Positions 62-12,561 of a stretch of DNA of 64,000 bases are shown here, one piece after another; positions within the stretch are counted from its first letter, which is position 1, and the number at the start of each line of letters is the position of its first letter. The translations under genes were made by a program, and so were the position numbers. The stretch comes from an uncultured Alphaproteobacteria bacterium. Its GTDB lineage: Bacteria > Pseudomonadota > Alphaproteobacteria > HIMB59 > GCA-002718135. The stretch is from contig CACIED010000004.1 in NCBI GenBank assembly GCA_902585605.1, positions 1,637-65,636 of the forward strand. Direction: 5' to 3'. The notes under the pieces were generated by a model that was given only the letters and a program-made list of their open reading frames with translations, was not told where the DNA came from and did not search any database.

Positions 62-1051
62 ATGAAAACAATTAGTGCCATCTTAATAATTTTATTAACC
101 TTCAGTTTTGTAATGCCCTCTAATGCCAAAGATTTATACAAGAAAAATCTAGGCATAAAAAAAAGTGATACTACACTTCAAGGTTGGGAAGCATGGAGAG
201 TGACAGGAAAAAAACAATTAAAAAAATATGAGAAAAAAAACAAGATAAAACTTTTTTCTATTGTCGATAACCCTACTCGTTTAGGGAAAACAGCATTTTT
301 TATTCAGGCACCAGGAGATGAATGTTTCCAAAGAGAAGAAGACTGTGATCGTAATGAGGGTTCTTACAAAAGAGTAGAAGCTAAGCAAATAGATGATGGT
401 GGAATATTGGGTGAGGTTTGGGTAACATATAGTTTTAATGCTCCTGAAGGGTCTCAATGGCAAAAATATGATCCCCATATTTTGCAATTCCATAGTGGTG
501 TTGCTGAATTTCCTCCTTTGTTTCTTTTAGGTATTAGTTCTAAATATGGTTTAAAATTAAGAGTTGAGCCGTTGAAAGGATTGGTCAATTGTGATGGAAC
601 TATAGACGAAAGACAAGATAATGATGATGCTAATTATTGTGGTAGGGAATTAAATACTTACTCCCTCATACCAATATCAAAACTAAAGAGTAATGTATGG
701 TATGATTTATTATTTAACATTAACTTTGATAGTGATCCGAATATAGGTTTTTTCAAAGTTTGGTTAAATGGTGATTTAATTATAGATGAAAAAGGACAAA
801 CTCTTTGGGAAGAAAAACCAATAGAAGAAATAGAGTTTAATCATGCTAATTTTAATTTTGGTATTTATGCTCAATTTATAGAAAATTATTCGCAATCAAT
901 TTATGCCGATGAGATTCGCAAAGCTGGATCATGTGAAGAGCTTAAATTAAATGACCTTGGTTACAAATGTGATGATTTGATAAATCAAAATGGAGGTATG
1001 TTACCAAAAGAAATCGAAGATATTGTAACAGGAGAGTTTACATACAACTAA
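62..1051 (+). CDS. Secreted polysaccharide-lyase-like (beta-sandwich, heparin lyase I/PF14099-like) protein
   Basis: N-terminal signal peptide (MKTISAILIILLTFSFVMPSNA). Motif order R.EAK / ILQFH / WYDLLFNI / FKVWLNG / FNFGIY / IYADEIR is typical of this fold. Confidence 0.55.
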   Translation: MKTISAILIILLTFSFVMPSNAKDLYKKNLGIKKSDTTLQGWEAWRVTGKKQLKKYEKKNKIKLFSIVDNPTRLGKTAFFIQAPGDECFQREEDCDRNEGSYKRVEAKQIDDGGILGEVWVTYSFNAPEGSQWQKYDPHILQFHSGVAEFPPLFLLGISSKYGLKLRVEPLKGLVNCDGTIDERQDNDDANYCGRELNTYSLIPISKLKSNVWYDLLFNINFDSDPNIGFFKVWLNGDLIIDEKGQTLWEEKPIEEIEFNHANFNFGIYAQFIENYSQSIYADEIRKAGSCEELKLNDLGYKCDDLINQNGGMLPKEIEDIVTGEFTYN

Positions 1052-1139: not shown

Positions 1140-1152
1140 TGGGGCGTTCTGT
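1140..1152. repeat. 13-bp direct repeat (att-like copy of the tmRNA gene 3' end)
   Basis: TGGGGCGTTCTGT at 1140-1152 is identical to 1930-1942. Confidence 0.85.
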
Positions 1153-1273
1153 ATAACGACTACTAAATCATTATTAACAGAAAATAAGGACTTTTGGAAA
1201 CTTCTTCGTAGAAACTTCGTAGTAAGTTTTCTTTATTTGTCAGATTTCTTGTTTTAGTTCTTCGTAGTCTTTT

Positions 1274-1801
1274 TTATTCTTTAATTAAGGATAATAATTT
1301 CTTTGCTAGTCTAGAAACTGCCTTTCTTCTATCTTTTGAAAGTTTTTTAATAATTTTTATATTTTCTTTTATTGTTTTATTATCAATTTTATTGAAAGTT
1401 ATTAGAGCATTCATTGATTGACACAAAACAATCCAATCACTGGAATTATTAAGATAATCAGATACAATTTTTTTTGCTTTTTTTTGTTCTTTATTTTCTA
1501 ATTGATTAACTAATTCTGAAAATAATTGAGCGCAGGTCCATTGTGTGGAAGATTGTTTTATTTTTGAAATTTTGTTTAAGAAAATATGTTTAAAATCTAA
1601 AAACCATTCTGGTTTTTGTCTAAATATTCTTTTAAAGGCATTTGATGTTCTTAATCTTACTATTTGGTCTGTGCTTGAATAACACTTAATTAATGGATTA
1701 ATTCTATTTTTTTTAACAATAACATGTTCAACAACTTTTATTGTATTACCTAGTGAATTTGGATGACCTCCAGTTAGTTCAGACTCATAATTCATTATCA
1801 A
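1274..1801 (-). CDS. Conserved hypothetical helical-repeat (HEAT/ARM-like) protein
   Basis: 175-aa ORF with motifs LTGGHPNSLG, VRLRTSNAFKR, QWTCAQL, DWIVL and DRRKAV, which I recognise from a widespread uncharacterised family. Confidence 0.7.
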   Translation of the reverse strand: MIMNYESELTGGHPNSLGNTIKVVEHVIVKKNRINPLIKCYSSTDQIVRLRTSNAFKRIFRQKPEWFLDFKHIFLNKISKIKQSSTQWTCAQLFSELVNQLENKEQKKAKKIVSDYLNNSSDWIVLCQSMNALITFNKIDNKTIKENIKIIKKLSKDRRKAVSRLAKKLLSLIKE

Positions 1802-1929
1802 TTAATTTGTTTAAATAAATCTGACAATTAACATTACCTAATAATAAATTATATATTTTCCTTAGTAGTAAACTTCGTAGAGAGGTTTTTAAAAGAAATT
1901 GTTGATTTGATTAGATAATATTTAAAAAA

Positions 1930-1942
1930 TGGGGCGTTCTGT
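1930..1942. repeat. 13-bp direct repeat, copy coinciding with the tmRNA gene 3' end
   Basis: TGGGGCGTTCTGT, the reverse complement of ...ACAGAACGCCCCA at the end of the tmRNA coding piece. Confidence 0.85.

Positions 1943-11000: not shown

Positions 11001-12561
<1,561 letters not shown>

Follow-up and report, generated by a model that had tools for sequence, protein, structure and literature searches.

The window analysed here, a 64,000-nucleotide stretch of contig CACIED010000004.1, belongs to a SAR11-type (Pelagibacterales) chromosome and is AT-rich, with about 29% G+C. Near its left end, the minus strand carries ssrA (1928-2213), the gene of a two-piece (permuted) alphaproteobacterial transfer-messenger RNA (tmRNA) with the tag ANDNRLALAA, which is matched over its full length by the Rfam model alpha_tmRNA (RF01849, 215 bits) and called as permuted by ARAGORN. 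ssrA is the attachment target of a small cassette, whose arms and putative integrase are described below. The 13-bp direct repeat TGGGGCGTTCTGT (direct-repeat family D1) occurs at 1140-1152 and at 1930-1942 and corresponds to the last 13 nt of ssrA, reading ACAGAACGCCCCA on the tmRNA strand. The ssrA-proximal core (1930-1942, minus strand) is the functional end of ssrA and forms an attL-type junction; the ssrA-distal core (1140-1152, minus strand) is a displaced duplicate of the ssrA 3' end and forms an attR-type junction. The segment 1140-1942 holds a 790-bp one-gene cassette, with one open reading frame (ORF) between the two core copies. This cargo gene (1274-1795, minus strand), taken from the ORF list, runs in the same direction as ssrA and encodes a 173-amino-acid HEAT-like repeat protein.

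Inward of each core copy lies a recurring 8-bp word. CTTCGTAG, which reads CTACGAAG on the ssrA strand, is found exactly at 1204, 1215, 1260 and 1873, and a degenerate form with one mismatch, CTTAGTAG, is located at 1861-1868. The longer string AAACTTCGTAG is exact at both 1212-1222 and 1870-1880. From repeat to motif pair, the spacing is 51 nt on the left side and 49 nt on the right side. On the cassette, these words define two arms, both read on the minus strand. The ssrA-proximal arm (1861-1929) consists of a 49-nt AT-rich spacer followed by the exact site 1873-1880 and the degenerate site 1861-1868. The ssrA-distal arm (1153-1267) contains three exact sites at 1260-1267, 1215-1222 and 1204-1211, corresponding to -115, -70 and -59 from the distal core.

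The four exact copies of CTTCGTAG are the only ones in the 64 kb, all on the plus strand and all within the 677-bp stretch 1204-1880. Shuffled versions of the window contain 0.35 copies on average and two at most, and none of 100 shuffles reaches four. When one mismatch is allowed, the window total is at chance level (14 against 18 expected), with five of the 14 inside the cassette stretch. A chance origin of the words was rejected on the basis of the shuffles and of their fixed placement across 57 related loci, presented below. A regulatory reading was likewise set aside: no terminator-like site was found, promoter-like sites are at background level, and the RNA folds of both core regions are unremarkable.

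A preliminary description of this DNA had presented the words as the arm sites of a complete attP, accompanied by a site for integration host factor (IHF), in a cassette that had lost or never had an integrase. All motif and repeat coordinates and spacings given there are correct on re-reading the sequence, and the motif is not scattered in ordinary DNA. The IHF-like match offers no such support. It lies at 1895-1907, reads GAAATTGTTGATT on the plus strand and AATCAACAATTTC on the minus strand, and differs at one position from the consensus WATCAANNNNTTR. At up to one mismatch, however, this consensus occurs about once per 260 bp in the window (248 matches found against 273 expected). The position of the site is conserved within the proximal arm, where ATCAAYAAT is also seen repeatedly among relatives; no comparable match is present in the arm of the metagenomic element described below (locus L112). 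Involvement of IHF is unsupported, as the match carries no statistical weight alone.

To place the cassette among its relatives, we used a 20-nt pattern from the ssrA end, which returned 57 species-level loci (408 kb), almost all from SAR11 single-cell genomes. These loci were oriented on the ssrA strand, where the motif is CTACGAAG. The word occurs in 180 copies on this strand, of which 178 lie between -125 and +100 of an ssrA-end core. The opposite strand holds a single copy, and 2.7 are expected per strand. The offsets are fixed, at +62, +74 and +85 after the core and at -115, -70 and -59 before the next core, and the consensus proximal arm reads core, N48, then CTACGAAG at these three positive offsets. 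The 13-nt identity class of the core itself recurs in many loci. Roughly 800-bp cassettes like that of the window are present in about 25 loci. In total, 40 cassettes with the same two arms (about 95 nt and about 120 nt) enclose 13 unrelated cargo types, which include ORFs of 881, 607, 293 and 264 amino acids, a GNAT-like ORF and an SGNH/acyltransferase pair, among others. The conserved stretch has sharp limits, set precisely by the outermost distal site at one end and the last proximal site at the other. Scores of the arm columns reach 0.93-0.97 in the distal and 0.84-0.88 in the proximal arm, compared with 0.73 and 0.65 on the cargo side.

Measured against this consensus, the proximal arm of the window is eroded. 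It retains one exact and one degenerate site, compared with three in the consensus, and it is shorter than in the 801-bp consensus cassette by one 11-nt unit. The attP of the window copy is therefore not complete, contrary to what had been proposed. One relative (L049) shares this state, with the +62 site plus a degenerate copy, and other copies also carry single-site mutations.

Across the relatives, arrays at the ssrA end reach five cores. Empty attB sites are found in two loci (L035 and L051), where a rhodanese gene directly follows the ssrA end; the same rhodanese flank also follows the last core in occupied arrays. In the 20-kb loci, the island is situated between ssrA and genes for rhodanese, cytochrome b, SspB, fumarase, LpxC and FtsZ. 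No integrase family was matched by any of ten ORFs from cassettes of this class (class A) that were scanned singly, and a Pfam survey of 80 island ORFs (66 matched in all) gave no integrase among the 25 most frequent families. At the ssrA of a different clade, three further loci (L114, L116 and L119) carry a class-A cassette with a GNAT-like cargo; their core is ACAGAACGCTCC, their G+C content is 31-33%, and the distal arm is without a core, so that this end has decayed.

A candidate source of integrase appears in metagenomic contigs. A scan for three tandem sites without the following 800-bp cassette returned 18 loci. In two of them, L112 (7360 bp) and L117, the distal arm, the core ACAGAACGCCCCT and the proximal arm are joined in a unit of about 230 bp that lacks ssrA and represents the attP form, and this unit carries the same six sites as the cassette arms. 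Immediately upstream of the L112 attP lies an ORF of 426 amino acids, whose stop is positioned between the first and second distal sites. Its end reads CAG ACT ACG AAG AAC CAA AAC AAG AAA TCT GAC AAA TAA, and its last codons, from ACT onwards, run through the first distal site. Because this ORF ends inside the distal arm, the corresponding part of the arm, conserved in every cassette, is the 3' remnant of the gene. In the window, the remnant occupies 1233-1267 (minus strand) with the sequence CTACGAAGAACTAAAACAAGAAATCTGACAAATAA; the full element encodes ..TTKNQNKKSDK followed by the stop, and a premature TAA is present here. Of the two histories considered in the preliminary description, loss of an integrase is thus favoured by the remnant, and the idea that the cassette never had one becomes unlikely. 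As a separate observation, an inverted repeat (TTATTTGTCAGATTTCTT / AATAAATCTGACAATTAA, 89% complementary, at 1233-1250 and 1814-1831) brackets the cargo ORF of the window, and its left arm falls inside this remnant.

The ends of L112 overlap over 316 nt (94% identity), and L117 spans the junction between them, which indicates that the element is a circle or tandem of about 7 kb. Besides the 426-amino-acid protein, its genes include one for a small serine resolvase (PF00239) and two or three for putative lipoproteins, alongside several orphan ORFs. Among its ORFs, no replication initiator, primase, helicase or packaging gene was recognised.

The 426-amino-acid protein has no Pfam or PHROG match, and its PDB profile match is weak (E 0.21). 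Its family comprises 20 clusters, two of which carry PF00589, with R236, K271, R354-H355 and Y386 unchanged throughout. At the first histidine of the catalytic motif, the family has Y or I, and the second is variable. An AlphaFold model (mean predicted local distance difference test score, pLDDT, 80) depicts an N-terminal four-strand sheet with a helix, a helical middle domain and a C-terminal domain. In a Foldseek comparison with the PDB, all 50 listed matches are tyrosine recombinases, led by XerA (1e-5) and followed by the integrase of Tn1549, XerH, IntI, Cre and lambda Int. Judging from the conserved residues and the predicted fold, the protein is a divergent tyrosine recombinase and the putative cognate integrase of the class-A cassettes. 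In another metagenomic locus (L137), the gene of an integrase with 85% identity to the L112 protein precedes, in order, its distal arm, a core, and the proximal arm with the unique beginning of the 800-bp cassette. A full element and the cassette thus sit in tandem there.

Related integrases share the layout and differ in their words. Family members at 32-43% identity repeat the succession of an integrase gene ending in the distal arm, a site pair, about 50 nt and the core. The arm word is CTACGAAG for P0121-P0123, TACACGAAG for P0133, ACTATGTACC for P0127, TACTATGAAC for P0124 and CTACACACT for P0140. The P0127 loci include both the attP form (L139-L141) and the integrated form (L142). A different integrase was also considered as the cognate enzyme. 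An identical 330-amino-acid protein, P0036, lies right after ssrA in another SAR11 clade (L096-L105, e.g. L096 7889-8993) and is indexed in 154 blocks; no second core is found in the approximately 6 kb that follow it. P0036 may be a resident integrase at the attachment site, and it was rejected as the cognate enzyme of class-A cassettes because no CTACGAAG arms lie beside it.

The same principle extends to the other cassettes at the ssrA end. Cassette classes were defined by de novo repeat counting at the site, and each has its own word and its own fixed geometry. The preliminary description had suggested motif discovery around the ssrA genes of relatives, and this counting recovers class-specific words at constant positions. 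Class A combines the 13-nt core and CTACGAAG with the offsets given above. Class A' has a 14-nt core and the word TGCACACAC at +59/+71/+82 and -115/-70/-57. Class B has a 23-nt core and the words ACGCGTAAT, GTGCGTAAT, ACGCGTC, GTGCCGTTT or GGCGACTT at +69/+80 and -160/-149/-38. One 23-nt-core element (L089) retains, directly following the core and proximal arm, a canonical PF00589 integrase that is frameshifted in an A-run. The word in both arms of this element is GTGCCGTTT, at +69/+80 and at -151/-140/-38, and an integrase-less cassette in another locus (L039) uses it too. SAR11 metagenomes contain 515 relatives of the L089 integrase, with the 330-amino-acid type as an abundant group. The element itself (10644-14092 of L089, contig CACIBE010000006.1) spans 3.4 kb directly after an 800-bp cassette, with the integrase frameshift near 11285, and also holds genes for an ArsP-type permease and an ArsR-type regulator, as well as a partial second copy of the cytochrome b gene.

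On this evidence, we consider it likely that the CTTCGTAG words are the integrase arm sites of a 790-bp integrase-less cassette at ssrA, derived from and served by its roughly 7-kb relative. The CTACGAAG words very probably serve as arm-type sites to which the integrase N-terminal domain binds, in a lambda-type attP arrangement with up to three tandem sites, one helical turn apart and about 50 nt from the core, on the proximal side, and a pair plus one further site on the distal side. We infer that the integrase binds these words and that the window copy can be excised. The central and catalytic domains of this heteronomous tyrosine integrase would bind the core and its N-terminal domain CTACGAAG, and binding to core and arms together would build a lambda-like intasome on the 230-bp attP. 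Recombination at the 12-13-nt identity with the ssrA end would then insert the element, restore ssrA and displace a core copy. Subsequent loss or replacement of the interior, with the arms retained, would yield one-gene cassettes. Such cassettes might move by two routes. In trans, the integrase of a resident or incoming full element would act on the attL and attR of the cassette; in cis, an integrase-bearing element would lie in tandem and the outer sites would recombine.

Two proposals of the preliminary description gain from these comparisons. Arm sites on both sides of the core, in a cassette without an integrase, recur with the same geometry in dozens of SAR11 genomes and around 13 cargoes. 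That the cassette is kept for its mobility agrees with the undivided attP beside a putative integrase, with the empty attB sites and with a cassette conserved far above its neighbours.

The words could instead be bound by another protein of the 7-kb circle, as replication iterons, partition sites, or operators of a regulator or excisionase, and lie at the cassette ends only as neighbours of the core. Six direct repeats about one helical turn apart beside AT-rich DNA also fit iteron-type origins, the element looks circular and encodes several small ORFs and a serine resolvase, and any of these proteins might track the words as closely as the integrase does. However, the words occur at conserved distances to either side of the core, as in lambda-type attP sites, rather than in one block by a rep gene, and no replication initiator is recognised. 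Integrase-less cassettes would also gain nothing from retaining the full arms, out to the outermost site, for the replication of a circle to which they no longer belong. The same design recurs, with a different word, in an unrelated class of canonical integrases at this locus, which fits arm sites as a feature common to the integrases. We regard this alternative as highly improbable.

The cargo provides a measure of how the cassette has spread. The protein has no Pfam or PHROG family. Its family of about 175 amino acids counts 164 detected relatives, including proteins of Bacteroidota and other phyla (40-50% identity), with invariant residues that include GHPNSLG near the N-terminus. The structural model (pLDDT 95) is all-helical with HEAT-like repeats. 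A fold search against the PDB gives AlkD2 as the best match (E 7e-3, weak), followed by generic HEAT/ARM proteins, and one match of a profile search is an uncharacterised archaeal HEAT-like protein. The identical 173-amino-acid protein is encoded in at least 23 contigs from different single cells. Mean nucleotide identities were compared in the 16 species-level genomes having all markers. They amount to 98.4% for the cargo ORF, 96.3% for the tmRNA, 88.5% for thyA and 86.4% for DHFR, and the cargo is more conserved than thyA in 119 of 120 genome pairs. As the cargo is so much more similar than thyA and DHFR, the sequences point to recent transfer of the cassette between species. A phage origin was rejected, with no DNA match of the cassette in the phage collection and no relative of the cargo in viral contigs.

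Several observations weigh against reading the words as arm sites of a mobile cassette. The window copy, with one proximal site lost and another mutated, may no longer suit the integrase and may be a poor substrate now. Sequences adjacent to the core of an attP reach the ends of an integrated element whatever their role, so that position alone is no proof of function. Motif columns are barely more conserved than spacer columns (0.973 against 0.926 in the distal arm and 0.882 against 0.843 in the proximal arm). The class-A integrase is absent from the single-cell genome loci examined and is seen only in metagenome contigs, and its N-terminal domain is assigned solely from the predicted fold. 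The sequences place the crossover only to within the 12-13-nt core (ACAGAACGCCCC). Finally, the near-identity of the cassettes could stem from homologous recombination via the conserved ssrA and rhodanese flanks.

Taken to its end, this last possibility describes the 790-bp cassette as a relic, with words that originated as arm sites of an integrative element but now fixed and immobile, spread between SAR11 lineages by homologous recombination through its ssrA and rhodanese flanks, with motifs decaying in the absence of selection. The site losses in the window copy and L049, the single-site mutations in other copies, the marginal excess of motif over spacer conservation and the lack of a class-A integrase in the single-cell loci would all suit such a history. 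So would the 96% identity of ssrA between genomes, which provides a recombination anchor, and the conserved position of the 800-bp cassette, nearly always the first unit after ssrA. Yet 13 cargoes within the same sharply bounded arms call for repeated cassette formation or exchange rather than one ancient insertion, and present-day metagenomes hold the undivided attP beside an intact integrase as well as its tandem with this very cassette. In four loci (L005, L011, L031 and L047), moreover, the 800-bp cassette lies behind a cassette of another class and not directly at ssrA, which spread through the flanks only does not explain. We therefore judge a purely relic state to be unlikely, and retain the interpretation of the words as arm sites of an integrase-dependent cassette.

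This design is that of a lambda-type attP on a CIME-like cassette. In the lambda-type attP, lambda Int binds the arm sites P1, P2 and P'1-P'3, accompanied by IHF sites, and related arrangements are found in L5, HP1 and Tn916. The SAR11 unit resembles these in its short core, which is common to element and bacterial site, is duplicated on integration and stands as a single copy between the arms of L112. It also resembles them in the direct-repeat words unrelated to the core on both sides, in the three tandem sites about 11 nt apart, in its size of about 230 bp, in an integrase gene that ends at the att edge and in the extra N-terminal domain of the model. In contrast, the element here is not a phage, and the integrase is too divergent for Pfam and PHROGs. 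The attachment site is the 3' terminus of the coding piece in a two-piece tmRNA, and most copies are integrase-less one-gene cassettes.

CIMEs are the cis-mobilizable elements of streptococcal families of integrative and conjugative elements (ICEs); they are att-flanked, lack an integrase and are mobilised after accretion with an ICE. Similarly, the cassette is enclosed by functional-looking attL and attR sites without recombinase or transfer genes (with one HEAT-like ORF in the window), has att sites in common with an integrase-bearing relative (L112/L117) and occurs in tandem with it (L137). The differences lie in the size of the cassettes (0.6-3 kb, often one gene), in the many cargoes and several specificity classes at a single site, and in a 7-kb partner without conjugation genes. 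The SAR11 system is known from sequence alone.

Cassette exchange in integrons offers a further parallel, with arrays of mostly single-gene, recombinase-less cassettes at one site and a recombinase encoded elsewhere. In the window, however, there is no attC-like inverted repeat, no IntI-type integrase beside ssrA and no common promoter. The SAR11 sites are composed of core and arms (double-stranded, lambda-like), and several integrase classes share one site. A miniature inverted-repeat transposable element (MITE) or an insertion sequence was rejected, as all arm words point the same way and the sequence duplicated is in every case the end of ssrA.

Cassette arrays at ssrA are also represented by the ssrA islands of Dehalococcoides, some of which are without an integration module and have been proposed to be cis-mobilizable (PMC3146451). 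Those islands use the large serine recombinase DsiB and a 20-bp T-loop-region repeat, span 10-30 kb and have no arm-type sites described (PMC3146451), whereas the SAR11 cassette would depend on a tyrosine recombinase with arm sites and inserts at the very 3' terminus, in the final 13 nt of a permuted ssrA. Tycheposons, the Prochlorococcus counterpart, are 4-200 kb in size and carry hallmark replication or packaging genes (10.1101/2020.12.28.424599). They and the additive flexible islands resemble the SAR11 arrays in holding cargo beside tRNA or tmRNA genes with partial RNA-gene repeats between units (10.1101/2020.12.28.424599; PMC10872708; PMC11796062), and integrases are rare relative to islands in both. 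The cassette differs from tycheposons in its 790 bp and single gene, and its 7-kb partner has no recognisable primase, helicase or packaging gene. In SAR11, a tmRNA-linked island and tRNA-repeat cassettes have been noted (PMC11796062), and the Pelagibacter mobilome contains many tyrosine-recombinase regions (PMC11876622). None of 10.1101/2020.12.28.424599, PMC10872708 and PMC11796062 describes arm-site codes or minimal one-gene cassettes that have complete arms. No description of the arm words, the minimal cassettes or the integrase family was found in the searchable literature, and a search on the literal motif returned only unrelated primer sequences.

The surroundings of the cassette show the array character of the site within the window itself. 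On the far side of ssrA from the cassette lie the DHFR and thymidylate synthase genes. Beyond the distal core, the minus strand carries ACGCGTCC at 1076-1083 and ACGCGTAA at 1065-1072, located at +69 and +80 from the core at 1140-1152. Since +69/+80 with ACGCGT-type words is the geometry of the 23-nt-core class, the adjoining segment is a second cassette, of this class. Its cargo gene (62-1051, plus strand) encodes a secreted polysaccharide-lyase-family protein (PF14099, E 2e-16), and the cassette extends past the start of the window. The same gene also follows the 800-bp cassette in L016/L094; the protein of the window is not on record.

Viral contigs were examined separately. Contigs carrying the ssrA-end 16-mer were considered as attP candidates and rejected, as the AT-rich ones represent phage-encoded tmRNA-like genes beside nrdA/nrdB and the rest are unrelated and GC-rich. 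In eight AT-rich IMG/VR loci (L067, L068, L069, L072, L075, L076, L079 and L084), a tmRNA-like 3' end, ..GGGGCACCTGGCAACAGAACGCCCCA, lies just downstream of ribonucleotide-reductase-like genes; these ends look like phage-encoded tmRNA genes rather than attachment sites. Viral scans for arm-word pairs gave only coding-sequence or tandem-repeat matches and no core. In the 176-kb viral contig Ga0316189_10000012 (37% G+C; L109 and L126), TTACTACGAAG is repeated 4-5 times in tandem and overlaps a repetitive ORF, with no ssrA core nearby.

SAR11, the most abundant group of bacteria in the ocean, is the textbook example of genome streamlining and of a genome poor in mobile elements. The cassettes described here define a minimal attP of about 230 bp and a candidate integrase family that escapes standard profiles. 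The pairs of arm word and integrase represent a natural specificity series for arm-binding domains, and the ssrA-end core with class words at fixed offsets provides signatures for counting cassettes, their cargo and their turnover in metagenomes. Should the integrases function in heterologous hosts, they could serve as orthogonal recombination tools for AT-rich genomes and possibly as a genetic handle on SAR11. For the biology of the group, one-gene cassettes appear to have crossed species boundaries recently, and a concrete mechanism can be proposed, at one hotspot, for the movement of the SAR11 flexible gene pool. More tentatively, and with slightly less than even confidence, we suggest that SAR11 runs an integron-like cassette exchange at the 3' end of ssrA, in which several tyrosine integrase families with private arm codes (CTACGAAG, TACACGAAG, TGCACACAC, ACTATGTACC, ACGCGTAAT, GTGCCGTTT and others), borne on rare small circles, would insert, excise and rearrange abundant integrase-less one-gene cassettes with a minimal attP, and which could form a main interspecies route for flexible genes.

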